From positions 28,654-92,653 of the forward strand of contig DATHQS010000357.1 of assembly GCA_035482455.1 (NCBI GenBank): 64,000 nucleotides of DNA, written 5' to 3'. Position 1 is the stretch's first letter. Each line of letters starts with the position of its first letter. Source of the stretch: Candidatus Acidiferrales bacterium (GTDB lineage: Bacteria > Verrucomicrobiota > Verrucomicrobiia > Limisphaerales > UBA11358). The notes below the pieces were generated by a model. It saw only the letters and a program-made list of their open reading frames with translations, searched no databases and was not told the origin of the DNA. Positions 2,372-30,726 of this stretch are shown piece after piece. The translations under genes and the position numbers were made by a program.

Positions 2372-2402
2372 TAAAATCATCAATCGACCCATAAAGAAGA
2401 TT

Positions 2403-10271: not shown

Positions 10272-11141
10272 ATGAAAACCAACTCCGGTCACCCGCCCGG
10301 CTTCACCCTGATCGAATTGCTGGTGGTCATCGCCATCATCGCCATTCTGGCCGCCATGCTCCTCCCGGCGCTGGCCAAAGCCAAGGCCAAGGCGCAAAGC
10401 ACGCGTTGCGTCAACAATCTGAAGCAGTTGGGCGTGGCCAACCGCATGTATGTGGATGATTTCAACGATCGCCTGGCCTATCCCAACTGGGACGGCAACA
10501 CCCTCGGCACCGCACCGGCGGGCTGGCTCTACTGGGCAGGCAACCCGATATTGAACGGAACGATTCCGGATCCCTACGACACCGGCACCACCTGGTATCA
10601 AAAAACTGCCGCCGCCTATGGAACCGGGTTGTGGTATAGATACGTCAATAACCCAAACACCTACCTTTGCCCGGTGGACATCGCCAGCCTGACTTTCCTC
10701 GCGGCTCCGGGAACATCAGTGACTTTGGGCGGCAAGACATACCCGGCCCGGCTTAACAAACTTTCCACCTACGTCATGGACGGTGCGGTGACAGGCTTCC
10801 CGAATGGCAACAATCCCCCGTTTAATCCGCCCAATATCGGCCAAACCATCAAGATGACCGCCGTCTGGAGTCCGATGTGTTATCTGATTTGGGAGCCAAA
10901 TGAATTTTCAGTCACGGGCAATACCGGTGAATACAATGACGGAGCCAACAACCCGACCACTACCGGTGAAGGCATCGGTTTGCTGCATAGCAAACATGGC
11001 GGCAATGCGCTGGCCTTGGATGGCCATGTCGACTTCGTGACGACCCTGCTGTACACACAGTATAGCACTGTCGGCAGCGGGCCGGGACCGGGTGGAAAAA
11101 CCTTTCTGTTATGGGATACCATAAATTCCAACGGGCATTGA
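10272..11141 (+). CDS. prepilin-type N-terminal cleavage/methylation domain protein (type II secretion pseudopilin-like, H-X9-DG type)
   Basis: [33 protein letters not shown] at the N-terminus and [15 protein letters not shown] near the C-terminus. Confidence 0.9.
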
Positions 11142-11177: not shown

Positions 11178-11777
11178 CTAGTCCCATTCACCCGTCTGCA
11201 GATACGGCTTCAGCTTTTCCTTGAGCGTCTCGCGCCCGCGATGGATGAGCGATTTCGTGGCAGACAGCGAACACTCCAGGATTTCCGCGATCTCCTCGTA
11301 GCTCAGTTCGTCCTGGCGGCAGAGCAGGATGGCCGTGCGCTGGTTCTCGGGCAGTTCCGCCAGCGCCTCCTCGATCTTTTTGGCCAGCTCGCCCTGCAAC
11401 ACGTTGTCCGTGGGCAGGGTGACCTTCTTGTCCTCGTATTGCCGCGACGGCTGGTCGTCGTGTTCCGCGTGCGTCTCTTCCAACGACTCGGCGGGATGGC
11501 GTGAGCGGCGGCGGATTTCGTTCAGGCAGAGGTTCCGGGCGATGGTGAACAGCCAGGTGGAGAATTTGGCGGTGCGCTCGTAGCGGGCGCGGGATTTATA
11601 GACCTGCAGGAAGACATTCTGCGCCAGATCCTCGGCCTCGGTCTCGTCCCGCAGGGTGCGGAAGACGAAATTCATCACCGGCTGCTTGTATTTCTCGACC
11701 AGTTCGGCAAACGCCGCGCGGTCGCCGCGCTTTACGCGCAGCATCAGCGTGGCATCCGGGTCGGGGACTTCTGGCAT
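11178..11777 (-). CDS. RNA polymerase ECF-type sigma-70 factor
   Basis: Region 2 (FAELVEKYKQPVMNFVFRTLRDETEAEDLAQNVFLQVY) and region 4 (ENQRTAILLCRQDELSYEEIAEILECSLSATKSLIHRGRETL). Confidence 0.9.
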   Translation of the reverse strand: MPEVPDPDATLMLRVKRGDRAAFAELVEKYKQPVMNFVFRTLRDETEAEDLAQNVFLQVYKSRARYERTAKFSTWLFTIARNLCLNEIRRRSRHPAESLEETHAEHDDQPSRQYEDKKVTLPTDNVLQGELAKKIEEALAELPENQRTAILLCRQDELSYEEIAEILECSLSATKSLIHRGRETLKEKLKPYLQTGEWD

Positions 11778-15262: not shown

Positions 15263-15640
15263 CTACTGCTTGGTAAAATTGACTGCAACGGCGGTAACGT
15301 GAGTTTTTAGCGAGGCCGCGAACCGCCGGTCAACCGCCTTCACAAAATTTAAGTCACATTTCTGAATCTTCCGCGCGACGGCTTGGAGGCCACTGCCCAA
15401 CAACGTGACTTCTGCCGCGGCAAAACAGATCACCAGCTTTTCGGGTGGTGCATCGGCATTCTTTTCCAGTGCCGGATTGGGAATTGTCTCCGCATACAGC
15501 AATTGCGCGTAGGGCAGAAGATAGCTGTGTGCGTCGTCGGCATACACGTTGAGCGATGCCACGTTCGGATCAATGCCGTAACAGGGATTGTCACGCGTGC
15601 TAGACACCGATGCTTCGTCCGGGTTGGGGTTTGTGTTCAT
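15263..15640 (-). CDS. hypothetical protein (downstream of the relaxase, overlaps its 3' end by 41 nt)
   Basis: 125-aa ORF with no recognisable motif. It is co-oriented with the relaxase. Confidence 0.4.
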   Translation of the reverse strand: MNTNPNPDEASVSSTRDNPCYGIDPNVASLNVYADDAHSYLLPYAQLLYAETIPNPALEKNADAPPEKLVICFAAAEVTLLGSGLQAVARKIQKCDLNFVKAVDRRFAASLKTHVTAVAVNFTKQ

Positions 15641-18323
15641 AGGATATTTTACGTGTTTGTTCGATGCGTTTGCGGGGCGAATGGGATTGCGTTATGCGCT
15701 GGCGGAATTGTTTCAGGAAACGATGGCCGAGTTCCATGACCCGCAAGATGAATTTCTGTCGGCTGACATGCGGGACCACTTCCACGGCTGCCAGTCGCTC
15801 GCTGGAATGGGTGATATGCGAACGCAGCCGCTCGGTATCATCGGTAAAAACCTGGCAGCGTTCGCGACCGCGCGAGATGCTGACGTAAAATTGCTGCTGA
15901 TGGACGGCGGCCAGCGAACGGGACGACGCCACAACCAAAACCTCATCCACCGTCTTGCCCTGGGCGGCGTGCGACGTGACGGCGTAGCCATGCGTGAATG
16001 TGCGGTAATTTTGAGGAATCACGCGGCCATCGGCCAACACCACGGAATCGCCCTGAATCGCCCGCACCTCGACAAGTTCGCCATTGATAAACCGCTTGCC
16101 GACCGTGTTGGCTTGCAGCAACAGCTTGTCACCAGCGGCGACTTTCAATTTCCGTTTCTCCCCCACATCAAACGAGGCGAAGCCTCGACCCAATGGAAGA
16201 AAACTTTCAGAGCCATCGTCACGCTGAACTTTGATCGAATCATTTTCGACTGCGACCACCGCGACCGTTTCATCTTTGGCGAAACCAGCCTTCCGCTGGT
16301 GAAACCGTATCGCCATGCCGGGATGAAATTGCCGCGCATCTTGTTTTTGGGCTTCCGTCCACGATAACGAATCGAAAACCTCAAATTCTTTTTCTTCACC
16401 GGCCAGACGGCCGGACGTTTTCATTGCTGCCCGCACTTTCTCCGTTACCGCCTCGATTTCATTCCAAGTCGGTGCGACCAGCAATGCAGATCGGTTTTGT
16501 TCCAACGCCTTTAGGTATGACTGCGCGACCTTGTCATGCAGATTATCGTTGGAAGATTCAGTGATCGCTCCGATGCGTTCCAGTTGGACGAACGCCTCCA
16601 GCGTCCGTTTTTGTGCCGCCAGTTCGACCGCCTTGCGATACTCAGCTTTGCGCTGGCGACGGATGCGGGTCAATTGGCCGGATTGAAAATTGGAATGTTG
16701 CTCCAGAATCCGCAACGCATCACCACGCACCACCGATGCGTGCTGGCCGGTGTCGCCCGAAAGCACCACACGGGCGTCACGAGCCAGGTCAAACAGCCGC
16801 TTCATATCGTCAATGCCGACCGCCCCGGCTTCGTCCAGCACCACCAACCACCGTTCGTCCAGTTTGGGTTTCGTCAGCAGCAAACTTTGCAGTGTCTTCG
16901 CCTCGAATCCTTCCTTGCGAAGCACATCCGTCGCCGCTGCCGTCGGCGCGCAAAATAGCGGTTCGATTTTCACTTCGGCGCAGGCGGCAACCAACTCGCG
17001 TAACGCCGTGGTCTTGCCCGTGCCTGCCAGACCTCGCAGGCCGGTGATCCGGTCATGCGTGCGGAGGACATGATAAATGGCCCGTTGTTGATCCTCGCCC
17101 AGCCAGTCGGCGGGCCGGTAGCTGGGGTGAATCGGCGCAACGGTATCGCAGGCCGCATTGACCGTCTGAATCAAATCCAGTTCCGTTGCCAAAATCTGTG
17201 GCGTGGATAATCCACGCTCGGTTTTGACCAGTTGATCCGAATACTTTGCCGCTTCTTTCAACGCCGGCAAATCCAATTCACCCGGATGCTGCGCCAGCGC
17301 CACGCCCAACAGTTCATGCTCCGGCACGACCGACTTGCGCTCGAAGACATGGGCGACGGCATAATTCAGGGCTTGGTTTTCCGGTTCAAACCGGCGGACT
17401 TGCCGGACAGGTTGAACCGCCGTGGAGAGTTTTTGCAACGCCAGCAATTCATCGGGCTGTAGTTGTGCCAACTGCAGCTCGCGAACCTGAGCAGTCGAAA
17501 TGCCTTTGATCTTTTTCGCCCGGCTCTGATGCACCGCCAGGGCGATGGCATTATTCGACAATTTGCGCCCCAGTTTTTGTTCCAGTTCCCGAACCACCGC
17601 GTCACGTTGCTGGGAGCGTTTGGAAAACCGTTTTAATATCGCATCACTCACGCCCTCGATTTCAAAGCCGTGTTTCGCGGGACGAATGCGATAGCCGATC
17701 TGTTGGACGCGCTTCGCCAATTCATTGCGATAAACTGCCGTGCCGTAACGAATCGCGTCATACATTCCGCCCGCCTGTAAAGCCTTCCAGCGCTTTTCCG
17801 TTTCATCGAAGGTGGCGTTGAACACGGTGAGATGCGTGTGCAACAGCGGGTCGAGCGCCCGGCTGCTCGTGTGCGTGAACGCGGCGGCGACCAGATTGCT
17901 GGTGTTGCGGTCACGTTGATTGCCCTGCTTGCGAACTCTGGTCGCGGCGAAGGTTTCAAGTTCGCGGAACGCTATGCGCGTCGCTTCCTCATGTGCTGAC
18001 ACGAGCCGGTCGTCATCCATCGTCACCGCCAGCACCGAAACCGATTTTGGCGCGGAACAGGTGAAATCGTAAAACACGCGCCGTTGATTGGTTTTTTCCT
18101 GACGCAGTGTCAGGCGGTTATCGTCATTCGGATTTTTGTTTTCACACAGCGCGTGAAATTGATCGCGGGTTACTGCCTTGTTTAGGCCAAGGCGTTCCGC
18201 GCCCGCGCCGATCCACTGGCCGGGCCGGATTTCACCGGCGGCGTAGTAGTCGTTCTGCGCCAGATGCTCGTCGAAGTAGCTCTCGGCTCTGGCCAGCTTT
18301 TTTTGCGCGACGGCTGTGAACAT
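15600..18323 (-). CDS. MobF-family conjugative relaxase (TrwC/TraI-like) fused to a RecD-like SF1 helicase
   Basis: N-terminal AESYFDEHLAQNDYYAAG, CSAPKSVSVLA and a histidine triad (LLHTHLTVFNATF). P-loop LRGLAGTGKTTAL in the middle, and a C-terminal helicase block (YAVTSHAAQGKTVDEVLVV). Confidence 0.9.
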   Translation of the reverse strand: MFTAVAQKKLARAESYFDEHLAQNDYYAAGEIRPGQWIGAGAERLGLNKAVTRDQFHALCENKNPNDDNRLTLRQEKTNQRRVFYDFTCSAPKSVSVLAVTMDDDRLVSAHEEATRIAFRELETFAATRVRKQGNQRDRNTSNLVAAAFTHTSSRALDPLLHTHLTVFNATFDETEKRWKALQAGGMYDAIRYGTAVYRNELAKRVQQIGYRIRPAKHGFEIEGVSDAILKRFSKRSQQRDAVVRELEQKLGRKLSNNAIALAVHQSRAKKIKGISTAQVRELQLAQLQPDELLALQKLSTAVQPVRQVRRFEPENQALNYAVAHVFERKSVVPEHELLGVALAQHPGELDLPALKEAAKYSDQLVKTERGLSTPQILATELDLIQTVNAACDTVAPIHPSYRPADWLGEDQQRAIYHVLRTHDRITGLRGLAGTGKTTALRELVAACAEVKIEPLFCAPTAAATDVLRKEGFEAKTLQSLLLTKPKLDERWLVVLDEAGAVGIDDMKRLFDLARDARVVLSGDTGQHASVVRGDALRILEQHSNFQSGQLTRIRRQRKAEYRKAVELAAQKRTLEAFVQLERIGAITESSNDNLHDKVAQSYLKALEQNRSALLVAPTWNEIEAVTEKVRAAMKTSGRLAGEEKEFEVFDSLSWTEAQKQDARQFHPGMAIRFHQRKAGFAKDETVAVVAVENDSIKVQRDDGSESFLPLGRGFASFDVGEKRKLKVAAGDKLLLQANTVGKRFINGELVEVRAIQGDSVVLADGRVIPQNYRTFTHGYAVTSHAAQGKTVDEVLVVASSRSLAAVHQQQFYVSISRGRERCQVFTDDTERLRSHITHSSERLAAVEVVPHVSRQKFILRVMELGHRFLKQFRQRITQSHSPRKRIEQTRKISYEHKPQPGRSIGV

Positions 18324-18659
18324 AAAACGCGATGTTAGCGGTTTTTAAAATGGCTTCATGCCTCGTTGGCACAATCGTTAATTTTTCTACCGGTTTTCAT
18401 TTCCTATTGGCCATTTTGCCTGAACTTTCTCCCGTTGAGTTGTATGTGATACACTATATGCACTTGGCCGATGTTTTTTTCATTCGGCAACCAGTTTGGC
18501 TCAGAAAAAGCCCGCTTTTGTGTAATCTTTACATAAAATGAAAAATCTCTTTTTGGCTGAAAAAACGCGTATGTCCGTTGGTTTTATTGAGGATTATCAC
18601 TTTCCATCCGGCTGAACCTGAAATTTTTTGCAGTTTTCGCATCGAAATTATGCTTGCCT

Positions 18660-18821
18660 GGCGCTTTGACTGGCCGGGTTTCCTCCGGGCACTCGGAAAC
18701 CGGCCAGACAAATCGCCGGCAATGCGAACCTAGACGGTCGAGCACTCGACGGGCGTTTTGAAAATCCCGCGACTCCACACCGTTCCGTTCGCTCCGATTT
18801 TCAAAACGCCCGTCCAGTGCT
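18660..18821. other. structured element copy A (three stem-loops); paralogue of 19228..19415
   Basis: P1 is ctggccgggtttcc/ggaaaccggccag (18670-18707). P3 is a perfect 16-bp stem cgggcgttttgaaaat/attttcaaaacgcccg (18750-18812) with a 31-nt loop. The conserved single-stranded blocks ggcgctttga, acaaatcgccg, gaaacctag and cagtgct are shared with copy B. Confidence 0.6.
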
Positions 18822-18876
18822 GTCCCAAACTTGATTCCGCACCCGGATTATCATATCTATTTCTTGAGTGAAAAAG

Positions 18877-19062
18877 ATGTCCTTCAATCAAATAAAACGG
18901 CAGGAGGCGCAAAGCCGCATGGCCGCAATTCGCAGGGCACGCCGCAGTCCGGCGGCAGCCGCAGCAGAACAAAGACGGGCATCACTCGTCGGCAATGGAG
19001 CCAAATGGCGCATCACCAATCTCAATGAAGCCGTCCGCGCGATGGCCAAACATTGGGGATGA
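18877..19062 (+). CDS. small basic Arg/Ala-rich protein (possible relaxosome/DNA-binding accessory)
   Basis: 61 aa: MSFNQIKRQEAQSRMAAIRRARRSPAAAAAEQRRASLVGNGAKWRITNLNEAVRAMAKHWG. It lies between the two structured copies and is preceded by gagtgaaaaag. Coding status is uncertain. Confidence 0.3.
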   Translation: MSFNQIKRQEAQSRMAAIRRARRSPAAAAAEQRRASLVGNGAKWRITNLNEAVRAMAKHWG

Positions 19063-19227
19063 CTTGGAAAGGCCGCAGATCATCACCTGATTTTGACGGT
19101 CAAATAGCCTGTTCGCTTGGCAGGAGAAAACCATTCGATGGCGTAGCGTAGCATGGGGCGCGGCCTGGCATCATGATGCTGCTGGAGAAAACCCTCCAGC
19201 ACAGACTGATTCCGTTTGGAATGAATC

Positions 19228-19415
19228 GGCGCTTTGACTGGCCGGCTTGCTTCCAGGTATTCAGCAACCGACCAGACAAATCGCCGTGATGGAAACCTAG
19301 GCGGTCACGCACTCACCGGTCGTTCTAAAACCGCGCTCAACTCCGCCGTCGTCCGTTCATGCCACTTCCGACCTGCTCCGTTTCGCTGCCGGTTTCAGAA
19401 CGCCCGGTCAGTGCT
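19228..19415. other. structured element copy B (diverged paralogue of 18660..18821)
   Basis: Same block order as copy A, with P1 ctggccggcttgc/gcaaccgaccag and P3 accggtcgttctaaaaccg/cggtttcagaacgcccggt. The stems differ in sequence from copy A but remain complementary. Confidence 0.6.
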
Positions 19416-19554
19416 TGGCTATTTGCTCATGGACGCATCAATTTGAGGTGTTCAGTCGAACGGAATCTTTGGCGGCTTTCTGGAATTGGAAAGCCGGTCA
19501 TTTTGGTTAGACACCATCCCCTTATCAAAAAATAAGGGCGGAAGACGAGCAACG

Positions 19555-20400
19555 GCCGCGCAATTTCCGGGCAATTTCCGCGCAACGTCCGACGCAACAT
19601 CCGGTGAATCATCCGCGCAATTACCGAGCAACTGCCGAGACGTGTCCGGGCAGTTGGCGGGAAACGTCTCACCAAACTCCGGTGAATGTTCGCGCCAAAG
19701 TTCGCACCAAAGTTGGCACGATGGTTCGCAAATGACTTGGTAATTACCGCCGCAGTCCACGCCGCAGTCCGCGCTGCATCCAGCGTGGTATCCGGCGCAG
19801 TATCCGCTGAATCATCCGGGCAATTGCCGGGTAACTTCCGAGCAGTGTCCGAGCAGTTGGCGGGAAACGTCTCACACAACGCCGGTGAATGTCCGCACCA
19901 TGGTTGCCGCAACGGCTCGCAGGCGACTTGGCAATTGCCATAGCAGTCCGCGCCGTAGATCACGCAGCAGACAGGTTGGCATCCACTGAGCAGTCCGCGC
20001 AGTGTCCGGCTTGGCGTCCGGGCAACATCCGATGAATCATCCAGAGAATTTCCGGGCAATTTCCGGGCAGCGTCTGGGCGATTTTTGCATGAAACGCGCA
20101 CCGGCCTGGAACTTTCCAGAGATTTTTCCAGTTTTTCCAATGGCAACGGCTTTTCCGTGGCAAGACACATTCCACGTTCGCGACGAGTCCACAAACATGT
20201 CTGCGTCCAGTCCGTGACCGAGACCCCATTTTGTCCGTGTCCGCACATAATCCGCGTTAACGATTTCTCCGCGACCTGACGGTGTCCAGTCCTCAAATTG
20301 ACCGCGAACACGGTTTACCCATGTCCAGCCTGGACCGCGCACAGTCCGAATTTTTGGTCAGTCCATGGCCTCATCCAGTCCGCGACCGCGACCGCAGTTT
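19555..20400. repeat. ~850 bp array of degenerate 11-bp phased repeats (consensus about gCAnTnTCCGn / cAGTCCG), organised in ~2.5 higher-order ~200-bp units
   Basis: One run reads caatttccggg caatttccgcg caacgtccgac gcaacatccgg tgaatcatccg cgcaattaccg agcaactgccg agacgtgtccg ggcagttggcg. A second run reads cgcagtccacg ccgcagtccgc gctgcatccag cgtggtatccg gcgcagtatcc gctgaatcatc cgggcaattgc. Long-range repeat 19601-19790 vs 19795-19960 vs 20025-20100. ORFs are open in several frames on both strands. Confidence 0.7.
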
Positions 20401-20499
20401 AGGACAAATACGGTCCAACCCCCCTCGCCATGTTAAAAAACTTATTCACAGGCTTGGCGTTGGCAGCCAGGGACGGGACCAACTTCGGGCAAGGATGGG

Positions 20500-20520
20500 A
20501 TGAATTTTCGGAAAATTCAT
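20500..20520. promoter_or_regulatory. perfect 9-bp inverted repeat atgaatttt-cgg-aaaattcat (operator/hairpin candidate)
   Basis: Read directly from the sequence. It sits in the intergenic AT-rich stretch between the repeat array and the protease operon. Confidence 0.25.
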
Positions 20521-20720
20521 TTTGTGAATCTTCCGATAGAAATTTAACGTTGAATTTTTCCGGCTTGAAGTAGTAGAAATCTGTTTGCTTTTAACAAACA
20601 TCCCGGTCACCGCCAAGCGCGTCTGGTGAACGCAGTTTTAAAATGAAATTGCCACTGCGCGACAAATGCTGAATTTTGCCCTCCTTCGCAGGTTTGTGAC
20701 CGACTCTGGCGATGGGGGGA

Positions 20721-20936
20721 TTAATTGGCGTCGGGACCTTGGACGAAATCATTAGTCTTTTTGGCCTGAAATAATTTTGCTGGGACGAAAGGTTCAGACG
20801 TCGGTGAGAACGAGGTGTTTTCGATCTGCTTAATCAAGCTGTCAGAGCAGGAAGAATCGCTGCTCCAACCAGCTGATTTTGATGAATCGGAATAGTCCAC
20901 ATAGGACACATTGTCGGCTGAATTTTTTTTATGCAT
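20721..20936 (-). CDS. small acidic Ser/Asp-rich protein (71 aa), 8-nt overlap with the upstream protease gene
   Basis: MHKKNSADNVSYVDYSDSSKSAGWSSDSSCSDSLIKQIENTSFSPTSEPFVPAKLFQAKKTNDFVQGPDAN. No known domain. The alternative start at 20957 would also overlap the protease gene. Confidence 0.45.
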   Translation of the reverse strand: MHKKNSADNVSYVDYSDSSKSAGWSSDSSCSDSLIKQIENTSFSPTSEPFVPAKLFQAKKTNDFVQGPDAN

Positions 20937-21963
20937 TTTCGTGCCTCCATCCATCAAATGAACGCTGGTCTTGAATTTGATTTAACGGTGCTCCAGGCAT
21001 GTTGATTCGGTTCAACGTCCCTTCGGTGGCAAAATAGTCGCTGCCGCCAGTTGTGCTCTCAATCAAGCCGCGTTTCAGGTTGTAGTTCACTGTAGGTTTG
21101 ACTCCCAAATAGGTGTTCGGATCAAATTTTGTCTTAAAATCTAACTCGACGGCTATGTCGTCGTAAATCGTTTTTATCAGTTTGTACAACTCATCGCTCG
21201 GCTTTTCGGCCGGTAATCCCATGGCTACGGATTCACGGCGATGCAGTGTGTAGTCATGGCTGCCAGACTCACTGCATAAAAACTTAACGATGGCCTCGAT
21301 TTTAGGCTTATCCTGCATCTGGTTGGAAAGCAACTTCCGGGCCAGCATTTGGATTTGGCTCTTGGTGCGATGGACTTGCCCCAGGACCAAGGGATGAACG
21401 TGGTCTGCCAATTTCATGATCACCGAAGTCAACCCTTCGGCTGATTTTATGCCGGCCCCTTCTTTGCAAAGCTCAATGAATCCATTCACTGATTCAACAC
21501 TGACCGGAAATTTTGCGTTGTTGGAGGCGGCGGGAATTATGGGGTTGAGAGCCGTGGTAATGCTGGGGTCGATGGGGCCAATGGTGGCCTGCTTGGTCAT
21601 CACAATCCTGTTCGCGCCCAAGCAGATCAGCGTCCCCGCACTGTGCGCCTTAGAGGGGACAACGACTTCAAACTCGTCGCAAAATTGCCGGATTAGATTG
21701 ACCAAGCTCCACGCCGTCAGCGTAGAGCCCCCACGCGTATATAAATAAAGGGAAATCTTCTTCTGGACACCAATCAAATCCAAATGATTCGTGAACAAAT
21801 CATAGACTTCAGGATGAATCTCGGTTTCTAATCCCGGCCGGTCACTTGTGATGTATGCAATGACGCGGGAACTTCTGTCTTTTTCCAACTCGGCATATTT
21901 TGCCTTCCGATGTGTATACATTTTTACCCTTAAATGCTTTTGTGGTTTGGAACGCCCGGACAT
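20929..21963 (-). CDS. SDH-family Clp-fold (ClpP/SppA-like) serine protease
   Basis: RVIAYITSDRPGL ... ISLYLYTRGGSTLTAWSLVNLIR ... VVVPSKAHSAGTLICLGANRIVMTKQATIGPIDPS is the pattern of the serine dehydrogenase proteinase (Clp fold) family. I chose the ATG at 21963. Confidence 0.7.
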   Translation of the reverse strand: MSGRSKPQKHLRVKMYTHRKAKYAELEKDRSSRVIAYITSDRPGLETEIHPEVYDLFTNHLDLIGVQKKISLYLYTRGGSTLTAWSLVNLIRQFCDEFEVVVPSKAHSAGTLICLGANRIVMTKQATIGPIDPSITTALNPIIPAASNNAKFPVSVESVNGFIELCKEGAGIKSAEGLTSVIMKLADHVHPLVLGQVHRTKSQIQMLARKLLSNQMQDKPKIEAIVKFLCSESGSHDYTLHRRESVAMGLPAEKPSDELYKLIKTIYDDIAVELDFKTKFDPNTYLGVKPTVNYNLKRGLIESTTGGSDYFATEGTLNRINMPGAPLNQIQDQRSFDGWRHENA

Positions 21964-22068
21964 AACTATCAATTTTATTAATCATGCGCAAGGTTTTTCA
22001 AACTCTGCCGCGCCACTCCACCACATAGATTGACGCGCCGCAAATTCCCAAGCAAACTGCCACGCACA

Positions 22069-25000
22069 ATGTCCAAACGGTTTTTCACCAATGAAGGCGA
22101 GAACACGCTGCTGAAAAAATTTGCCGGCGTGTTCACCCATAACCCTGACATTGAAAGGTTTGACGCGCTTGTTGGTTATCTGCGCGCGTCCGGTTATTTT
22201 GCTCTCCGGCCCCATCTGGAAAAAGTCCCGCTCATCCGCATCATCGTCGGGATTGACGTGGACACCGAACTGGCCCGCCACCATCGCAAGGGGCTGCTCA
22301 TGCTGGGTGACGCCGATAAGACCTTGTCATTCGTTCGCGCCAAACTCGCGGAGGACGTGCAAGGAGCGCCCTACCGGCGCGAGATTGAGGAGGGCATCCG
22401 CCAGTTTGTTGCTGATGTAGCGTCGAAGCGCGTCGAAATCCGGGCGCACTCCACCAAAAAGCTCCACGCCAAGCTCTACATATTTCTGCCGACCGGCTTT
22501 TGCGAACACAAGCCGGGCGCGGTCATCACAGGCTCGTCTAACCTTACTGCCGCCGGTTTGGGTGTCGAGGATGCCGCCAGCAACTACGAGTTCAACGTCG
22601 TGCTGCATGACTACGACGAGGTTGTGTTTGCCAAAAATGAATTCGAAAAGCTCTGGGGCGAAGGTGTCTCTGTTCTGCCGGAGGCGGTCAAGGGTGTTGT
22701 GCGCGAAAGCTACTTGCGCGAAGACCTCACGCCGTTTGAACTTTACATCAAATTTCTCATCGAATACTTCGGCCCGGCCATTGATTACGACCCTAATTCC
22801 GAACGTGATATGCCCAAGGGCCGCAAGGCGTTGAGCTATCAGGGGGACGCCGTCAATGACGGCTGGCTCAAATTGCAAAAACACGGCGGTTTTTTTCTCG
22901 CCGACGTTGTCGGCTTGGGCAAAACCGTTGTGGCGACGCGCATCGCCAAGAAATTTTATTATCATAACGGGTTTCCCAATCATCGCTCCCGTATTTTGAT
23001 CATCACGCCGCCGGCCTTGCGCGAAAATTGGGAAACAGAAATGGAGATGTTCGGTCTGGATGATGCCGTCAAGATCATCAACAACGGCAGCCTGCATAAA
23101 ATCCGCGACCCGGAGAAATACGACCTCATCATCATCGACGAGGCGCACAAGTTTCGCAATGACACCGCCGACGGTTACGACCTGCTCCAGAAATTGTGCA
23201 AGACCCGCACCAAACATCGTTTGCCTGATGACGAGTTTGCCCGGAAAAAAGTTATCCTGATCTCCGCCACGCCATTGAATAATCGCCCCGCTGACATCCG
23301 CAACCAGGTCTTGCTGTTTCAGGACGGCAAGGATTCCACCGTCATCGGCAACCTCCAGCATTTTTTCGCGCAGCGCATCAAGGAATATCAGGTCGCAACC
23401 AATCCGTTGAAGACGCCCGACCGGCAGGTGGCTCATGCCGCTGTCGCACGCATCTACGAACTCATCCGCGAGCAGGTCGTGCAACCGCTCACCGTCCGCC
23501 GCACGCGGACCGACCTCGTCGAGGATAAACGCTGGAAGGCCGATCTGGACGCGCAGGGCATCATTTTTCCCAAGGTGGAAAAACCCACGCCGATTCTTTA
23601 CCAGCTTGATGATGGCCTCGGTGTGCTATACGACCGCACCATTCAACTGTTGGCCTTCCCTGACTCCGGCGGTCTAACCTACAACCGCTACCGCGCAATC
23701 GCGTTTCTCTCCACCCTAGAGCTGAAGCAGAAATACGAACGTGCCGACCTTGTTGCTACGCAGTTGGCGCGCATCATGAAGACGATGCTGGTTAAGCGTC
23801 TGGACAGCAGTTTTATCGCGTTCAAAAAAAGTCTTGGCCGGTTCCGCGATGCCACGCAGGCGATGCTCACCATGTTCGAGCGCGGTAATATTTACATCGC
23901 GCCCAGCCTGCATGTCTCGGATTATATTTTAGAAGACCGCGAAGACGAACTTATCGCGGCCATCGCCGAAGCCAGCGAAACCGACCCAACGATCACCGCT
24001 TGCACGCCCAAAGATTTCAAACCCGAATTTCTCGACGGTTTGAAACACGACGGTAAAATTCTCGACGAGTTGGTTGCAGCCTGGGAACAAGTCCAAGCCG
24101 ATCCAAAATTGGATGAATTTCTTTCCTGCTTACGCGGCGAGGGCAGCCGTCCCAATCTGCTCACCAAGCCGTTCAATGAAACCGGCAAGCTGGTCATTTT
24201 TTCTGAGGCACGTGACACCACGCGCTATTTGACGGAAAAACTCAACGCTGCCGGTTTCGGCCCGGTGCTGACCGTGGATTCCCACAACCGCAAAGACGAA
24301 ATGCCCAAGGTCCGCGCGAATTTTGACGCGAACGTCGCCATTGGCGATGCCTCCAACCGTAGGGATGATTTCCACATCCTCATTTCCACAGAAGTCCTTG
24401 CCGAAGGAGTGAACCTCCATCGCGCCCATGTTATTGTGAATTATGATACGCCGTGGAACTCCACGCGCCTCATGCAGCGCATTGGCCGCGTCAACCGCAT
24501 TGGCAGCACTGCCAAGGCCGTCCACATTTTCAATTTCTACCCCACCACCCAGGTCGATGATGACATTGATCTCCAGCGCAAGGCGTTTCTGAAATTGCAG
24601 GCGTTCCACACCGCGCTCGGTGAGGACAGCCAGATTTATTCGCCCGACGAGGAAGTCGACAACTTCGGCCTGTTTGACCGCGCCATTGAGGAGGAGCGTG
24701 ACGAACGCCTCCGGTTCCTGTCCGAGTTGCGGGATTTCAAGGACGCGAACGAGGATGATTTCCGCAGGATTCGCAATCTCCCGCTTCGTGCCCGTTGCGG
24801 TCGGTGTGACGCAACCCAGACCGGCCACACGCTTGCTTTCATCCGCGATGACCGTCGTGATGCTTTTTATCGCATTGCTGCTGAACTTCAGGAGATTGGT
24901 TTCGTCGAAATGGCCCGGGCTTTCCGTGCCGAAGTTTCCGAATCGGCGGCCCCGTTGCCCGCCACGCACCATGAACAGGTGCTAGACGCGTTGGAGGATT

Positions 25001-25386
25001 TCCGCACCAAGCTCGCCGCCGATGCCGTGCGTGAACGGGCCGTGGACCACACCGCCGGTCCCAATGAGCAAAAGGCCATGCGTCTGCTGGCTGCCGCGCA
25101 GGGGATGCCCAACGTCTCCGCTGCCGAAAAAGCCCTGCTCGTCGCCGCCCAGCACGCCATCCGCGTTGCCAAATTTCAAGATCTGTCGCGCAAGCTCAAC
25201 GCGCTCCAAAAAGCTGTCGTCAAAAAACCGGTCACCACCGCCGCGCTCCTGGACAAGCTTTTGGAGATCATTCGCTCATACCCGCTTGATGTGGCCGAAC
25301 CGGATGCCGATGCGTCCGAAACACCTGTCGTTGACCATCGGTTTATACCGCATATCATACTGTCGGAATCTTTCACCACGAAATGA
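22069..25386 (+). CDS. PLD (single HKD) nuclease domain fused to an SNF2-family helicase/ATPase
   Basis: LHAKLYIFLP...VITGSSNLTAAGLG (HKD/GSxN, about 22456-22560). SNF2 motifs LADVVGLGKTVVA, LIIIDEAHKFRN (about 23127-23160), LISATPLNNRPADIRNQ, STEVLAEGVNLHRAHVIVNYDTPWNSTRLMQRIGRVNRIGS. The stop overlaps the next start (ATGA at 25383-25386). Confidence 0.9.
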   Translation: MSKRFFTNEGENTLLKKFAGVFTHNPDIERFDALVGYLRASGYFALRPHLEKVPLIRIIVGIDVDTELARHHRKGLLMLGDADKTLSFVRAKLAEDVQGAPYRREIEEGIRQFVADVASKRVEIRAHSTKKLHAKLYIFLPTGFCEHKPGAVITGSSNLTAAGLGVEDAASNYEFNVVLHDYDEVVFAKNEFEKLWGEGVSVLPEAVKGVVRESYLREDLTPFELYIKFLIEYFGPAIDYDPNSERDMPKGRKALSYQGDAVNDGWLKLQKHGGFFLADVVGLGKTVVATRIAKKFYYHNGFPNHRSRILIITPPALRENWETEMEMFGLDDAVKIINNGSLHKIRDPEKYDLIIIDEAHKFRNDTADGYDLLQKLCKTRTKHRLPDDEFARKKVILISATPLNNRPADIRNQVLLFQDGKDSTVIGNLQHFFAQRIKEYQVATNPLKTPDRQVAHAAVARIYELIREQVVQPLTVRRTRTDLVEDKRWKADLDAQGIIFPKVEKPTPILYQLDDGLGVLYDRTIQLLAFPDSGGLTYNRYRAIAFLSTLELKQKYERADLVATQLARIMKTMLVKRLDSSFIAFKKSLGRFRDATQAMLTMFERGNIYIAPSLHVSDYILEDREDELIAAIAEASETDPTITACTPKDFKPEFLDGLKHDGKILDELVAAWEQVQADPKLDEFLSCLRGEGSRPNLLTKPFNETGKLVIFSEARDTTRYLTEKLNAAGFGPVLTVDSHNRKDEMPKVRANFDANVAIGDASNRRDDFHILISTEVLAEGVNLHRAHVIVNYDTPWNSTRLMQRIGRVNRIGSTAKAVHIFNFYPTTQVDDDIDLQRKAFLKLQAFHTALGEDSQIYSPDEEVDNFGLFDRAIEEERDERLRFLSELRDFKDANEDDFRRIRNLPLRARCGRCDATQTGHTLAFIRDDRRDAFYRIAAELQEIGFVEMARAFRAEVSESAAPLPATHHEQVLDALEDFRTKLAADAVRERAVDHTAGPNEQKAMRLLAAAQGMPNVSAAEKALLVAAQHAIRVAKFQDLSRKLNALQKAVVKKPVTTAALLDKLLEIIRSYPLDVAEPDADASETPVVDHRFIPHIILSESFTTK

Positions 25387-28300
25387 ATTTAGCCGACTGC
25401 CAGGCCCAGTTTCAAAAAAAGTATTCACTGGAAAACTGGCGCGTCCTGTTGCCGCAATTGTTGCCCGGCGTCGCGCTCTTTGCGCAACCCCAGGATTATC
25501 CGTTGACCAATGACCGTGAGCGTAGCATCGCCACTGCCCGCCGCCAGTTCGGCGCGGCCACGCTCGCCGATGGCAAGCGCATTGCTTTTTACGAGATTGA
25601 TGTCGCCGCCAAGGTGGACTTGCTCCGCAACCGCGTCGCCCTTCGCGAGATCGTCGCCCGCTGTATTGACGAAGTCAGCGCGCACACCGTGCTCGCGTTT
25701 TTTGTCCATCCCGACAAGCCCGTTTACCGCCTGACCTATGCCGCCAAGGAAAGTCGGGTCGGTGACGACCTCAAAATCCACACCGGACAGACCGCCACGC
25801 GCCGGTACACCTACGTGCTGGGGCCGGGTGAAAGGCGCCGCACCGCCGCGTTGCGGTTGACTGCGTTATCCGAAAAGCGCGACACGACCGGGCTGAAGGA
25901 GGTCACCGACGCCTTTTCCGTCGAGAAGATCAACCGCGAATTTTTCGACACTTACAAGTCGCACTACCAGAAATTTTGCGACCATCTGCTCGCTGGCGAC
26001 GCACCGGCCAAGGTTTTCAAACTGCCACTGCGGGGTCTGGCGGATGAAGCCCGCGACCACACGCTGAAGCCGGTGCGCGACTTCGTCAAAAAGCTGTTGG
26101 GCCGCCTTGTCTTTCTTCATTTCCTCCAGAAGAAAGGCTGGTTGGGTTGTCCCGCTAATGTGACCCCTTGGAAAAACGGTGATCCTGATTTTCTCCGCCA
26201 GCTTTACACCACCGCGCCCGTCACCGACCTGCAACGGTTCCATTCCCGCCGCCTCGTGCCATTGTTCTTTGACACGCTGAACCGGCGGCGAAAAGATGAT
26301 TTATTTTCCATCACCGGCACCCGCGTCCCGTATCTTAACGGCGGTTTGTTTGAGCGCGATTTTGACGGCGTGGAGCAGATTGATTTCCCCGCGGAATTGT
26401 TCCACGACGTGCTGGAATTTTTCGGCCAATACAATTTTACCATTGATGAGAACGATCCTGATGACCACGAGATCGGCATTGACCCCGAGATGCTCGGGCA
26501 CATCTTTGAAAACTTGCTGGAAGATAACAAGGACAAGGGCGCTTACTACACGCCCAAGGCCGTCGTCCAATACATGTGCCAGCAGAGCCTCATCCATGCG
26601 CTCATCGGCCATTTTCCAAGTGACCCCGTCGCCCGCACCGAAATCGAAAAGCTCATCCGCACCAAGGAACCCATTGATGCCCGTCAGGATTCCTGGCTCG
26701 CCCGGCATGCCACGCAGTTGACCAAGGTTCTTGAAGATCTTCGCATCTGCGACCCCGCCATTGGTTCCGGCGCGTTTCCCATCGGCCTGCTTCAGGAGAT
26801 TTATTGGACCAAGCTCGCCATAAATTCCGGCCTCGACCGCGCCAAGGCCAAGCGCGATATCATCCAAAATTCCATTTTTGGCGTGGATATTGACGCTGGC
26901 GCCGTGGAAATCGCCCGGTTGCGTTTCTGGTTGGCGCTCATCGTTGAGGAAAAGAGCCCCGTGCCGTTGCCCAACCTCGATTACAAGATCATGCAGGGTA
27001 ATTCCCTGCTGGAAAGTTTTGAGGGCATTGACCTGAGCAATCTTACTGGCAAACAGCGCAAAGCCATCCAGTTGATCGGCACGGAGCAGACGGAACTGGG
27101 CCTCAAGACCGTCTCCACCGAACTGACCATCGAGTTCGCCGAGGGCAAGCAAGCCGAGATCACCAGCCTCATCGGCGGCTACTTTGGTCAGGACGATCTG
27201 GAGCTGAAACAAAAGTTGCATGGCGAGATTGATGACCTCGTGCTTGGCCACATTGAATACAATCTGGATTTGCATGAGGAACGGATTGAGGCGGCGCTCG
27301 ATAATGCCCGCAAGGAACTCAAACGCAAGCAGGCACGCGCCCGTGGCTACGAACCTACCAAGCGGGAGGCCGGCCGCATTGCCGAACTGGAAGCACAACT
27401 GGCTGAGGTGGACCGCAAGCGGGCGGCACTGGCGGAATTGCAGGAAAAACCGGAACGACCATTCTTTCTCTGGCACCTGTATTTCCAAAATGTGTTTGCT
27501 CGCGGCGGGTTCGATATCGTCGTAGCCAATCCGCCTTACGTCCGGCACGAGGCAATCAAGGATCAAAAGGCCGCGTTGCAAGCCGCGCCTTACGAATGTT
27601 ACGACGGCTTCGCCGACCTGCTGGTTTATTTTTACGAGCGTTCGGTAAAACTACTGCGTCCCGGTGGCGTGCTGACTTTCATCACCTCAAATAAATTTTA
27701 CCGCGCCGGTTATGGCGAGAAACTGCGCGGTTTTCTTGCCCGTGAACTAACCCTGCACCGGCTGATTGATTTTGGCGACGCACCCGTGTTCGAGGCCATC
27801 GCCTATGCCTCCATTCTCGAAGGAACACGCGCCGCGCCGTCTACTGACGCCTCGGCACGGATTTACACTTGGGGAAAGGGAATGCCCCTCGACAGTATTG
27901 CCTCCGTAATTGGGTCGCACGGCCAGCCAATTCGCCAAGACGAGCTCAAGCCAGACGGCTGGCGGCTTGAATCACCAATAGTGCTTCGTCTTCTCGCCAA
28001 ACTCCGCGCAAACGGCACGCCGTTAGGTGAGTATGTGAAAGGGTGTTTGTATTATGGAATCAAGACCGGCCTCAACGCAGCATTTATTGTAGATCGCGCC
28101 ACGCGCGACCAGCTCATTGCCGAGCACTCCTCGTCGGCACAGCTTTTGAAGCCTTGGCTTAGGGGACAAGATATTGACCGCTGGCAGATTTCCCCCTCAG
28201 ACCTTTGGCTGATTTTTCCGCCCCGAGGAACGGACATCAACAAATACCCTGCTATCAAAGGCTATTTAAATAAATTTAAGGAACAACTTTCACCAGGAGT

Positions 28301-29570
28301 TGACGGTGGCCGAAAGCCTGGCGATTATGAATGGTTCGAGATACAAGACAATGTTGCATATTGGCGTGAGTTCAAAACGCCAAAAATTGTCTTCCCAGAT
28401 ATTGCCAAGAGTTCTGAATTTGCTTGGGACAGTGGTGGCCATTTTGTCGGCAACACCGGCTATATACTTCCAACGCAAGATAAGTGGCTGCTCGCTGTTC
28501 TCAACTCATCGGCAGTTTTCTGGTTTTACCTCAATGTTAGCAACTTCATCCGGGGCGGGTATGTGCGGTTTATTAGGCAATATGTTGAAACCATTCCCAT
28601 CCCCACCACGACCGCTGCGGACCATACGGAGTTAAGCGCCCTCGTTGACCATATCCTTACGGCGAAGCGCGCCGGAGACGAGGAGACGGTGCATCAGTTA
28701 GAACACGAAATTGACGCGCACGTTTTCCGGCTCTACGCCCTCACGCCGGAAGAGATAAAGCTGGTGCAGTCCGTCCATGTCGAATCGGTTTCCGACAACC
28801 CGAAGTCCAACCTGTTCAACCGCGAGCAGCCCGAACTCAAAGCGGTGTCACCTTACTTCACCAACGCTGATCGCACCGCAATTTACGACCGGGTACTGAC
28901 CGAACTCAAAGCGTCGTCCCCCTATTTCACCACCACCGCCATCACCCGCCGCGCACAGGAGTTGGATCCTGAAATCAACCTCGACTCTTTGGCTGTGTAT
29001 CTCTCTGGGGTTACGGCCAATGGTTTGGTTCATGATGCTGGTCGCGGCTGGTATTCCGGATTGAGCAATCCCGTGCCGCTGGATGCCAAGCCGGTCGTCA
29101 AACTCATCCGTGCCGTCGAAAAGGCGTTCCCGCTGCTGGAGTTCACCGTCTGGTCCACCGCGCAAATCAATCCCTGGATGCACCACCTGCTCGCTCAGCC
29201 TGTCACGTTCCTTTACGCCCCGGCGGACACCCTTGAATCCGTCGGCGACACCCTCCGTGAACAAGGCTGGGAAATCGCCCTCGACCCCGGCAAGAAGGAG
29301 GGATCGAAACTGGTTCGCCCCGGCGAGAAAATGCTGGTCTTGCGCCCCACCCATTCCAAACAGCCCGCCCCGGCTGGGCGGCAGGCCAAAATCGAGCAAA
29401 TCTTGGTGGATTTGCAGCTCGAAGCCGGGCGCTTGGCGCTCATGGATACCTCCGAAGCCCAAGGTGTCATTCGGGCAATTTTGGGCCAATATCTTGTGCA
29501 AGTGGCTGAAATGAAGACCTATGCAGACTTTAGAACACTTAAGTTAAATGATTTAGAAGCACTTAACTAA
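25383..29570 (+). CDS. 1395-aa N6-adenine DNA methyltransferase (Eco57I/type IIG-like, TaqI-type C-terminal specificity domain) with an extra C-terminal ~250-aa AbiEi-like module
   Basis: Motif I ICDPAIGSGAFPIG, motif IV VVANPPYVRHE (NPPY at 27528-27539), TRD-like GTPLGEYVKGCLYYGIKTGLNAAFIVD. The C-terminal tail (about 28800-29567) contains FTTTAITRRAQEL..SLAVYLSGVTANGLVHDAGRGWYS and IEQILVDLQLE. Confidence 0.85.
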   Translation: MNLADCQAQFQKKYSLENWRVLLPQLLPGVALFAQPQDYPLTNDRERSIATARRQFGAATLADGKRIAFYEIDVAAKVDLLRNRVALREIVARCIDEVSAHTVLAFFVHPDKPVYRLTYAAKESRVGDDLKIHTGQTATRRYTYVLGPGERRRTAALRLTALSEKRDTTGLKEVTDAFSVEKINREFFDTYKSHYQKFCDHLLAGDAPAKVFKLPLRGLADEARDHTLKPVRDFVKKLLGRLVFLHFLQKKGWLGCPANVTPWKNGDPDFLRQLYTTAPVTDLQRFHSRRLVPLFFDTLNRRRKDDLFSITGTRVPYLNGGLFERDFDGVEQIDFPAELFHDVLEFFGQYNFTIDENDPDDHEIGIDPEMLGHIFENLLEDNKDKGAYYTPKAVVQYMCQQSLIHALIGHFPSDPVARTEIEKLIRTKEPIDARQDSWLARHATQLTKVLEDLRICDPAIGSGAFPIGLLQEIYWTKLAINSGLDRAKAKRDIIQNSIFGVDIDAGAVEIARLRFWLALIVEEKSPVPLPNLDYKIMQGNSLLESFEGIDLSNLTGKQRKAIQLIGTEQTELGLKTVSTELTIEFAEGKQAEITSLIGGYFGQDDLELKQKLHGEIDDLVLGHIEYNLDLHEERIEAALDNARKELKRKQARARGYEPTKREAGRIAELEAQLAEVDRKRAALAELQEKPERPFFLWHLYFQNVFARGGFDIVVANPPYVRHEAIKDQKAALQAAPYECYDGFADLLVYFYERSVKLLRPGGVLTFITSNKFYRAGYGEKLRGFLARELTLHRLIDFGDAPVFEAIAYASILEGTRAAPSTDASARIYTWGKGMPLDSIASVIGSHGQPIRQDELKPDGWRLESPIVLRLLAKLRANGTPLGEYVKGCLYYGIKTGLNAAFIVDRATRDQLIAEHSSSAQLLKPWLRGQDIDRWQISPSDLWLIFPPRGTDINKYPAIKGYLNKFKEQLSPGVDGGRKPGDYEWFEIQDNVAYWREFKTPKIVFPDIAKSSEFAWDSGGHFVGNTGYILPTQDKWLLAVLNSSAVFWFYLNVSNFIRGGYVRFIRQYVETIPIPTTTAADHTELSALVDHILTAKRAGDEETVHQLEHEIDAHVFRLYALTPEEIKLVQSVHVESVSDNPKSNLFNREQPELKAVSPYFTNADRTAIYDRVLTELKASSPYFTTTAITRRAQELDPEINLDSLAVYLSGVTANGLVHDAGRGWYSGLSNPVPLDAKPVVKLIRAVEKAFPLLEFTVWSTAQINPWMHHLLAQPVTFLYAPADTLESVGDTLREQGWEIALDPGKKEGSKLVRPGEKMLVLRPTHSKQPAPAGRQAKIEQILVDLQLEAGRLALMDTSEAQGVIRAILGQYLVQVAEMKTYADFRTLKLNDLEALN

Positions 29571-29616: not shown

Positions 29617-30726
29617 ATGTTTTCACCGGGGCTATTGACGGCGGGGGCACTGCAAAAGCAGGCGAAAACTCTGGGCGGTTGCAACCAGGATATCTTGGAA
29701 CGCAGCCTTTACGCCCTCACCCTTCTGGGGCATCTGGCAGATACCAAAATCCCCTTCATTTTTAAGGGCGGCACCAGCCTGCTCCTGCACCTGCCCGAAG
29801 TGCGCCGTCTTTCGATTGATATTGATATCGTCTGCGGTGAAAAGCCGGCGGTGATCGATGCGGCAGTGGCGCAGATTGGCAAAAAAACACCGTTCATCCG
29901 GTCCGAGGAACACGTTCGAGATCATTTTATCAAGCTGCCGCAGCGCCGGCACTTCAAGTTTTTTTATCGTTCTGCGATCGGCGGCCAGGAAGTTCCCATC
30001 TTGTTGGATGTGGTGGAGGAGTCGCGGATCCACCACCAGCTGACAACCCGCCCGATTCAAACGTCATTCATCAAGCCGGACCGCGAGATCATGGTTCAGC
30101 TCCCCACCTTGGAGAGCTTGTTGGGGGACAAGTTGACGGCTTTCGCGCCCACGACCGTCGGTGTGCCGCTACGTAAATCTGATGGTCAGCCCGGCGATGT
30201 CATGCAGGTCACCAAACAGTTGTTCGACATCGGCGTGTTGTTCGGGGCGGCCACAAATTTCAATGAAGTCGCCTCCACCTATGACGCCGTACAGAGACTG
30301 GAATCGGAATATCGTCCGACCAAACCCAGCCGCGAGGCTTCGCTGGCGGATACCTTTCAGGCATGCCTGGCGACGACCGCATCAAAGACACGCGACGTGG
30401 CGGCTTACGCGGATGCGCCGCTGTTGCAGAGCGGATTCCAAAGTTTGCGCGGGCATTTGACGTGGCCCGGATTTGCGGCGACTCAAGAACCGAAGCGTAT
30501 CATTGCCGCTCGAACCGCTGTTTTGGTTGCTCATCTGCGTGCTGGTGTTCCATTTGATTTTGCCGCCCATCGCTTCACCGGCAGCACCGAACAAATCGAG
30601 ACCGTCCGTGGTCTCACACTAAACGGGACGTCATTGGCTTGGCTAGACGGAATGCGGGCCGTCAATCCGGAAGCTTATTATTATTGGCATCGTGCCATCC
30701 AGCTAACCCCGCCTCCGGCCGCTTGA
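29617..30726 (+). CDS. AbiEii/AbiGii-family nucleotidyltransferase (type IV TA toxin-like)
   Basis: IPFIFKGGTSLLLHLPEVRRLSIDIDIVC (about 29755-29840) matches the KGGTAL...R.S.DlD signature of DUF1814/AbiEii NTases. The gene starts 46 bp after the methyltransferase stop. Confidence 0.75.
   Translation: MFSPGLLTAGALQKQAKTLGGCNQDILERSLYALTLLGHLADTKIPFIFKGGTSLLLHLPEVRRLSIDIDIVCGEKPAVIDAAVAQIGKKTPFIRSEEHVRDHFIKLPQRRHFKFFYRSAIGGQEVPILLDVVEESRIHHQLTTRPIQTSFIKPDREIMVQLPTLESLLGDKLTAFAPTTVGVPLRKSDGQPGDVMQVTKQLFDIGVLFGAATNFNEVASTYDAVQRLESEYRPTKPSREASLADTFQACLATTASKTRDVAAYADAPLLQSGFQSLRGHLTWPGFAATQEPKRIIAARTAVLVAHLRAGVPFDFAAHRFTGSTEQIETVRGLTLNGTSLAWLDGMRAVNPEAYYYWHRAIQLTPPPAA

Follow-up and report, generated by a model that had tools for sequence, protein, structure and literature searches.

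A ClpP-fold serine protease with a small, tag-like partner as a candidate mobile toxin–antitoxin-like module

The stomatin-specific protease 1510-N is a ClpP-fold enzyme that cleaves the product of a neighbouring gene, its operon partner stomatin. Toxin–antitoxin–chaperone (TAC) systems, outlined in a preprint (bioRxiv 10.1101/2024.02.24.581848), act in phage defence; in them, a short ChAD element is carried by antitoxins from several unrelated families, which thereby come to depend on a third protein from the same operon. In NetFlax, the ImmA protease domain is an antitoxin hub, and ImmA-type proteases are the only proteases listed (PMC10440598). Here, we describe a pair of genes found in a 64,000-nucleotide stretch of DNA from a Candidatus Acidiferrales bacterium (GTDB phylum Verrucomicrobiota; assembly GCA_035482455.1, contig DATHQS010000357.1, positions 28,654 to 92,653 of the forward strand), hereafter the window. 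The pair encodes a ClpP-fold serine protease and an overlapping 71-amino-acid partner. Homologues of the two genes recur together across many phyla, and in some loci the conserved N-terminal motif of the partner is joined to antitoxin-like parts that precede toxin genes. These observations point towards a toxin–antitoxin (TA)-like role, which we weigh below against several alternatives.

Co-occurrence and mobility of the protease and its partner

The survey comprised 81 loci, the window among them, and in 80 genome loci of protease homologues the DNA 3′ of the protease was read. An open reading frame (ORF) of 57–130 amino acids occupies the same place after the protease in nearly all 80 genome loci. 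A profile built iteratively from these small ORFs was searched against 7,681 six-frame ORFs (≥35 amino acids) in the 81 loci. It matched 67 of them, every one directly after the protease and on the same strand, and 66 of the 81 loci were positive. Most profile-negative loci carry shortened or divergent variants rich in serine and threonine, such as ‘..YANYxxSSTT..ALIxxL..’. The association extends to an independent set of 68 viral contigs from IMG/VR: all 17 profile matches adjoin the protease, and nearly all remaining contigs have a Ser/Thr-rich ORF overlapping the protease stop codon. Where the search began from partner matches instead, the protease directly preceded the partner in every readable context.

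The partner is easily overlooked. A single-sequence search with the 71-amino-acid protein returned only five close relatives, and its conservation became visible only once the DNA downstream of protease homologues was read and a profile was built. Searched against 5.8 billion proteins, the profile retrieved 51 proteins, and against 1.84 billion cluster representatives it retrieved 78 clusters. Those that carry a name are all ‘hypothetical’; none has a Pfam domain, and nearly all are 50–90 amino acids long with the motif at the N-terminus. In metagenomes, an identical partner and proteins 64–89% identical to it have been called as genes. In most loci outside the Bacteroidota the partner begins 3–28 nt inside the end of the protease gene; as judged from the sequence, the two genes are translationally coupled.

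The protease family retains 52–63% identity across ~20 phyla, including Verrucomicrobiota, Planctomycetota, Pseudomonadota, Bacteroidota, Bacillota, Chloroflexota, Spirochaetota and Patescibacteria, and in two archaeal lineages (Methanothrix and Methanofastidiosum). All-against-all BLASTP clustering of the neighbours in the 81 loci yielded no third conserved gene. Four copies that are 96%, 86%, 85% and 74% identical to the window protease all keep the 8-nt overlap and have unrelated neighbours: PIN and UPF0150 genes; a Schlafen/AlbA_2-like ATPase; HicA, an insertion sequence element and an ImmA-like peptidase; and SecA with other housekeeping genes. A similar mixture surrounds the pair in the 80 genome loci, whose 141 immediate neighbours include Vsr, parts of type IIG and type I restriction-modification (R-M) systems, MADS, AriA (PARIS), HKD-SNF2, PemK, PIN, Fic and housekeeping genes. 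In the 74%-identical relative (L083), a second small same-strand gene (71 amino acids, 11226–11441) lies after the 69-amino-acid partner and before secA.

The module is found in prophages, R-M loci and settings resembling integrative-conjugative elements. In Escherichia coli, a copy 54% identical to the window protease occupies a moron position in a lambdoid prophage, flanked by the Q antiterminator and the holin and encoded on the opposite strand. This module is present in 47 of 5,426 complete genomes (0.9%). The E. coli partner has 59 amino acids and an 8-nt overlap and is absent from the RefSeq annotation (strain AH02, NZ_CP081704.1; L087, protease 2229–3224, partner 3217–3396), which illustrates how annotation pipelines pass over this small gene. 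A type I R-M shufflon houses the pair in Treponema succinifaciens (hsdM-hsdS-[pair]-integrase-hsdS′). Because no third gene is conserved, closely related copies have unrelated neighbours and the pair occurs in prophages and R-M loci, the comparative evidence argues that protease and partner are an autonomous, horizontally mobile two-gene module. Across T. succinifaciens and related metagenome contigs (L091–L093, 5001–6219), the order hsdR-hsdM-hsdS-[pair]-tyrosine recombinase-partial hsdS looks phase-variable, and the 72-amino-acid partner is indexed in ~1,200 blocks of the contig collection.

The partner motif and its place on antitoxins

The partner family consensus, taken from the profile of small ORFs, is NINYVDYSTSSAESPWYETSADPDSLSNIIKNNTIIIDN. 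Among close relatives, the nonsynonymous divergence (pN) of residues 4–40 is 0.06–0.22 with synonymous sites saturated, and that of the tail is 0.26–0.61, with dN/dS up to ~1 where computable. The low pN of the motif against the high pN of the tail indicates that the motif is under selection and the tail nearly free. Tail length and sequence vary from locus to locus, and no Cys or Gly motif recurs among the tails. The protease itself has a pN of 0.08–0.18 at saturated synonymous divergence. Modelled alone with AlphaFold2, the partner of the window scores a pLDDT of 59 and a pTM of 0.19, and the prediction is one of disorder apart from a helix at residues 31–39.

More informative are the loci in which the motif heads a larger protein. 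Among the 76 genome loci with a partner, 13 have an elongated one (83–195 amino acids), in which an extra C-terminal part succeeds the motif; a third gene comes next, in tight coupling. Several of these third genes belong to toxin families (Table 1). When the long partners themselves were scanned with Pfam and NCBIfam, the only matches were the Panacea domain of one locus and, in the tail of one partner that precedes a PIN gene (L015), a weak VapB match at the expected position (E 0.033). A metagenomic locus (L164) preserves the C-terminus of the protease, a 93-amino-acid partner and a third gene whose N-terminus is MazF-like by eye. The third genes of L025, L046, L068 and L070 have no family match in Pfam or NCBIfam; if the reading of the three-gene loci given below is true, such unmatched genes are candidate new toxin families.

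On gene order and family matches, at least five TA families have antitoxins in which the partner motif stands where a DNA-binding N-terminal domain would usually be. Since this motif has been recombined repeatedly onto antitoxins and always travels with one enzyme, it would most simply be the recognition element of the protease.

The protease, the window locus and its neighbours

The protease matches Pfam SDH_protease (PF01972, formerly DUF114) with an E-value of 6.4e-16 and 58.6 bits, above the gathering cut-off of 31.3. Against the NCBIfam equivalog NF047768, ‘SDH family Clp fold serine proteinase’, it scores 74.2 bits, so far under the cut-off of 250 that we regard it as a related but distinct subfamily; RefSeq nonetheless gives the E. 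coli homologue this name. The family has more than 3,000 homologues of ~330 amino acids. The best PHROG match is phrog_11747 (E 6.5e-57), a family of unknown function. An AlphaFold2 model (pLDDT 86.5, pTM 0.82, 29-sequence alignment) comprises a ClpP-like core (residues 1 to ~140), a helical region (142–272) and a C-terminal three-stranded beta-sheet (277–328). In a Foldseek search of the PDB, its nearest structures are 1510-N (E 7e-6), ClpP and SppA, with a probability of 1.00; in a viral library they are giant-virus ‘serine dehydrogenase proteinase’ proteins. A sequence search of the PDB found 1510-N entries as the sole relatives (E ~1e-3). On this modelling, the protease belongs to the ClpP/crotonase-fold serine peptidases.

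Ser94, the predicted nucleophile, is invariant in all 80 intact homologues and in the protease alignment, as are D118, E143, H222 and D223. S94, D118, H222 and D223 are candidates for a Ser-Asp-His triad; loop 219–221 has a pLDDT below 50 in the model. The conserved putative catalytic residues and the confident ClpP fold predict an active enzyme. The model contains no signal peptide or membrane segment, and the protease appears soluble.

A sequence-only reading of the window, made from the letters without database searches, had already proposed most of this locus. Its Clp-fold SDH-family serine protease is borne out by the Pfam score and the modelled fold. It placed the two genes at 20721–21963; both ORFs are there, on the minus strand, and its peptides VVVPSKAHSAGTLICLGAN and IGPIDPS both lie inside the protease, but its end coordinate is the ATG at 21963, and we adopt a later start. 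The gene start was set at the ATG at 21921 because homologues of ~330 amino acids begin at the corresponding MY.. and because a sigma-70-like site occupies 22001–21972. This site is a consensus match only (1 found against 1.7 in shuffled sequences), weak by itself, and it falls inside a divergent intergenic region common to the protease and the PLD-SNF2 gene, whose ORF begins at 22030. The two start codons are 108 nt apart, close to the ~105 bp that had been given for this divergent pair. The predicted 8-nt overlap is exact (ATGCATAA): the partner ATG lies within the last protease codons, AAT GCA TAA, with the stop at 20929–20931, inside an enclosing ORF of 20721..20957 (minus), and follows a GGAGG at 7 nt. 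The partner had been described as an acidic protein of ~25% Ser with many Asp residues. It is indeed Ser-rich, at 21% (15/71) overall and 31% within the first 45 residues, but only mildly acidic (net charge −2, pI 5.0), with 10% Asp. Its lack of a recognisable fold was confirmed: it has no match in Pfam, NCBIfam, PHROGs or PADLOC, and the model predicts disorder.

Downstream of the partner, the terminator-like hairpin suggests that the two-gene unit is closed there, and the ORF list of the window holds no convincing third same-strand ORF after the partner. An RNA element was also considered; no Rfam match was found in 18000–22300.

Table 1. Features of the protease–partner locus in the window, and third genes at related loci
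Feature	Position or locus	Strand	Remarks
Protease ORF, longest	20929..21972	minus	347 aa from first TTG (21972); ATG also at 21963
Protease gene as adopted	20929–21921	minus	330 aa from ATG at 21921
Ser94 codon, predicted nucleophile	21640..21642	minus	PSKAH(S)AGT, nucleophile in brackets; aligns with the serine of ASAA(S)AGT in 1510-N
Promoter-like site	21972..22001	minus	TTGAAA, 18-nt spacer, TAAAAT; 10/12 consensus matches; upstream of protease
Small partner gene	20721..20936	minus	71 aa; ATG 20936, stop codon 20721–20723
GGAGG Shine-Dalgarno for partner	20944..20948	minus	7 nt before ATG, within protease Trp-Arg codons; read from sequence
Partner conserved N-terminal motif	20808..20912	minus	Residues 9–43, NVSYVDYSDSSKSAGWSSDSSCSDSLIKQIENTSF; proposed protease-recognition tag
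Partner variable C-terminal tail	20724..20807	minus	Residues 44–71
Terminator-like hairpin and T-rich tail	20640..20665 (hairpin 20665–20649)	minus	~55 nt past partner stop; pattern match
Third gene, PemK/MazF	L007, L063		Pfam
Third gene, PIN	L015, L055		Pfam
Third gene, Fic/Doc	L060, L061		Pfam
Third gene, YafQ	L042, L067		L042 by Pfam; L067 alike by eye
Partner with SocA/Panacea antitoxin domain	L072		E 1.7e-18; followed by MAG6450-family gene
Third gene without Pfam/NCBIfam match	L046 9260–9808; L070 1332–1880		183 aa
Third gene without Pfam/NCBIfam match	L025 5151–5447; L090 1496–1783		96–99 aa
Third gene without Pfam/NCBIfam match	L068 9488–9778		97 aa

The pair lies beside a defence island with genes for PLD-SNF2, a type IIG methyltransferase, AbiEii, a UvrD-like helicase, GmrSD-HNH and an Mrr-like protein. 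The 1,395-amino-acid type IIG-like methyltransferase (Eco57I, TaqI_C; 25383–29570, plus strand) carries a DUF6577/AbiEi-like domain at ~1172–1387, and the AbiEii nucleotidyltransferase toxin gene follows directly (29617–30726, plus strand); the AbiE antitoxin appears to be fused to the C-terminus of the R-M enzyme. On the other side of the module, a TrwC-type relaxase with an AAA_30 helicase domain is encoded at 15600–18323 (minus strand); this region of the window is probably a piece of an integrative-conjugative or plasmid-derived element. The stretch between relaxase gene and module, at 19400–20320, looks non-coding: spurious ORFs in several frames repeat ‘PGNCPDDS’-like peptides, and 19556–19974 holds a degenerate ~203-bp tandem duplication (1.9 copies, 74% matches) with 11–12-bp repeats. 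An oriT- or iteron-like role within the mobile element is conceivable for this stretch. A DUF1559/N_methyl protein is encoded at 10272–11141, a hint of a host among the Planctomycetota.

Proposed function, rival explanations and comparison with known systems

The genes have the layout of a type II TA system, being adjacent, co-directional and overlapping, with a patchy mobile distribution. A TA-like or abortive-infection function in the general sense is the best explanation and, on the comparative evidence, evenly poised between right and wrong. More tentatively, we propose an unrecognised class within it: a self-contained TA or abortive-infection module composed of a dedicated ClpP-fold protease and a portable N-terminal tag of ~40 amino acids, in which the protease would give the tag-bearer its lability and, in the minimal form, would be the effector itself. 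This last element, the protease as effector, is by itself doubtful. In such a scheme, the protease would bind the partner motif as a portable tag, and the partner would serve as a sacrificial substrate or a pseudosubstrate inhibitor; any tag-bearing protein would thereby gain protease-dependent behaviour in any host. In the two-gene form found in the window, ongoing synthesis of the partner would hold the protease busy or blocked. Should synthesis cease, for example because a phage shuts it off or the element is lost, the store of partner would run out and free protease would cleave other proteins. In the three-gene form, the tag would sit on the toxin-binding part of the antitoxin, and the protease would govern the release of MazF, VapC/PIN, Doc or YafQ.

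Several observations weigh against this proposal. We infer protease–partner binding, cleavage and toxicity alike from comparative sequence. At least 80% of the loci, the window included, have no classical toxin, which leaves the effector of the minimal form to guesswork. Most type II antitoxins have a DNA-binding domain, and the partner lacks one; most C-termini of the long partners match no family, so that their antitoxin nature is read from gene order and the toxin that follows. Two loci (L047 and L076) have an intact protease and no recognisable partner, a poor fit to a strongly toxic enzyme. Some of the apparent invariance of the protease is by construction, for the loci were fetched with the protease peptide patterns MTKQATxG and SGSHDY. 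Several loci lie among housekeeping genes, and the defence genes among the neighbours are a plain listing made without a background comparison.

The nearest alternative would keep the protease harmless. It would only degrade antitoxins or deliver toxins, supplying antitoxin lability or working alongside the partner as adaptor in the manner of type VI SocAB, and the two-gene forms would be regulatory cassettes or leftovers of three-gene modules. The tag on antitoxin parts of at least five toxin families, the partner with a SocA/Panacea domain and the two loci that tolerate a protease without partner all fit this idea. It is nevertheless unlikely, as two-gene forms are the large majority and both of their genes are intact and under strong purifying selection, which argues that these forms function without a classical toxin. 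Alternatively, the pair could be a leader peptidase and its precursor, with the motif as leader and the tail as a released peptide (a signal, a bacteriocin-like product or the core of a ribosomally synthesised and post-translationally modified peptide). A conserved N-terminus before a fast-evolving C-terminus resembles a leader and core, and the dedicated protease gene is adjacent and coupled. Yet the 81 loci share no nearby gene for a modification enzyme, a transporter or immunity, the tails have no recurring Cys or Gly motifs, and the protease model has no signal peptide or membrane segment. A secreted peptide would also leave unexplained the 13 loci with antitoxin parts and toxins at the ‘core’ position, and we regard the precursor pair as improbable.

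Two further explanations depend on gene context. The pair might be an accessory regulator of the neighbouring PLD-SNF2/type IIG methyltransferase system, for example by degrading or activating a component. The short divergent region in the window is suggestive, and the trio recurs in two Chloroflexota loci (L060, 1467–9890; L065, 5242–11920), where a module of protease, tagged antitoxin and Doc lies between HKD-SNF2 and type IIG-like methyltransferase genes. The proteases there are 53% identical to that of the window, and the HKD-SNF2 proteins are 26–27% identical and divergently encoded at −95 and −108 nt. Their methyltransferase, related to that of the window, lies on the other side of the module. 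In favour too, the PADLOC model C3a139 (HKD+Snf2) matches 2 of the 141 immediate neighbours. Against the role, 78 of the 81 loci have no SNF2 or methylase neighbour, and the order of the trio differs between the two lineages. TA-type modules commonly lodge in R-M loci, as in T. succinifaciens. Because gene order differs and 78 of the 81 loci lack these genes, we read the link as co-residence in a defence island. The regulator role was downgraded as the closest relatives (copies 74–96% identical) have unrelated neighbourhoods, and it is quite improbable. In L065, the Doc and SNF2 genes look decayed or split. The remaining explanation takes two forms: a relic of a phage head-maturation module, made up of a prohead protease and a small protein resembling a scaffold, or a housekeeping peptidase of the SppA kind whose downstream ORF is incidental. 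The protease has weak matches to head-maturation profiles (NF045542, E 3e-8, 33.7 bits against a cut-off of 120; PHROG families, E 1e-4 to 1e-2), and the module occurs on the 68 viral contigs. Its best PHROG match, however, has no assigned function, the E. coli copy is placed not in the head cluster but in the interval from Q to the lysis genes, in opposite orientation, and no capsid or portal gene is conserved nearby in the 81 loci. On this gene context the head-maturation protease was rejected. A housekeeping role fits poorly with the patchy distribution, as in E. coli, and the variable neighbourhood; the explanation as a whole is very improbable.

These comparisons also sort the ideas of the sequence-only reading. 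It had left three options open, and two of them, a TA-like pair and a protease/substrate pair, gain strong comparative support from the antitoxin fusions before MazF, PIN, Doc and YafQ, whereas a regulator of the adjacent system has mostly fallen away. Its expectation that the small ORF would be conserved and associated with the protease has held up, with profile matches in most loci, divergent variants in most others and purifying selection. The HMM search that it proposed matched SDH_protease, and the neighbourhood survey found the small ORF co-occurring amid variable neighbours that include some defence genes. The defence-island setting is real for the window and many loci but does not extend to all. 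That the pair is not a named defence system still stands: in PADLOC-DB v2.0.0 no family was hit at E ≤ 0.01 by protease or partner, and no publication describing the pair was found in a literature search that was incomplete, so that an earlier description is possible. Mentions of a ‘Clp-like protease’ in PMC9729726 and PMC7159879 refer to other proteins.

If the tag-and-protease proposal is true, the module would be independent of host Lon and ClpXP. That would account for how widely it has spread (~20 bacterial phyla, archaea, prophages) and how often it has captured TA pairs of the MazF, VapC, Doc, YafQ and Panacea types. An operon-encoded protease with a transferable tag would then be a third way to make an antitoxin conditional, besides host proteases and the SecB-like chaperones of TAC, and a protease family of several thousand members named only ‘SDH family Clp fold serine proteinase’ would gain a role. 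The E. coli prophage copy makes the module directly testable. On the horizon, the portable tag and its protease may offer an orthogonal degradation system.

Each of the closest described systems shares part of this arrangement. The SDH-type ClpP-like proteinases (PF01972; NF047768) resemble the window protease in Pfam score, fold and viral structural matches; the window protease has, in addition, a helical region and a beta-sheet at the C-terminus, and a small partner gene goes with it as an obligatory companion. The NfeD/STOPP protease 1510-N (PDB 3BPP, 3VIV) is the closest solved structure by both sequence and fold, and its nucleophile serine aligns. However, 1510-N is membrane-anchored, uses a Ser-Lys dyad and has an SPFH-domain target, whereas the protease described here is apparently soluble, with conserved Asp/His candidates and a 57–90-amino-acid partner predicted to be disordered. 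The three-gene variants carry the toxin families of MazEF, VapBC, Phd-Doc and DinJ-YafQ, and one partner has the Panacea domain of type VI SocAB/Panacea systems. They depart from these families in that the motif replaces the usual DNA-binding N-terminal domain of the antitoxin, and the window locus has no such toxin. CalpL-CalpT-CalpS, Craspase-Csx30 and Rosmer (RmrTA, with an ImmA-type protease antitoxin) likewise place a dedicated protease beside the protein that it controls, with a toxic or regulatory output. Their folds are unrelated (Lon/SAVED, CHAT and ImmA metallopeptidase against ClpP), no sensor domain was identified here, and neither gene matches their models. The likeness to TAC is one of logic only: a portable element on unrelated antitoxins and a dedicated third protein from the same operon. 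In place of a SecB-like chaperone there is a serine protease, the element is N-terminal rather than C-terminal, and a toxin gene is absent from most loci. Nor do the 81 loci share a chaperone gene near the pair, which sets it outside TAC as defined. By analogy, then, the module works most like TAC and the protease/substrate/effector triads, while being a member of none.

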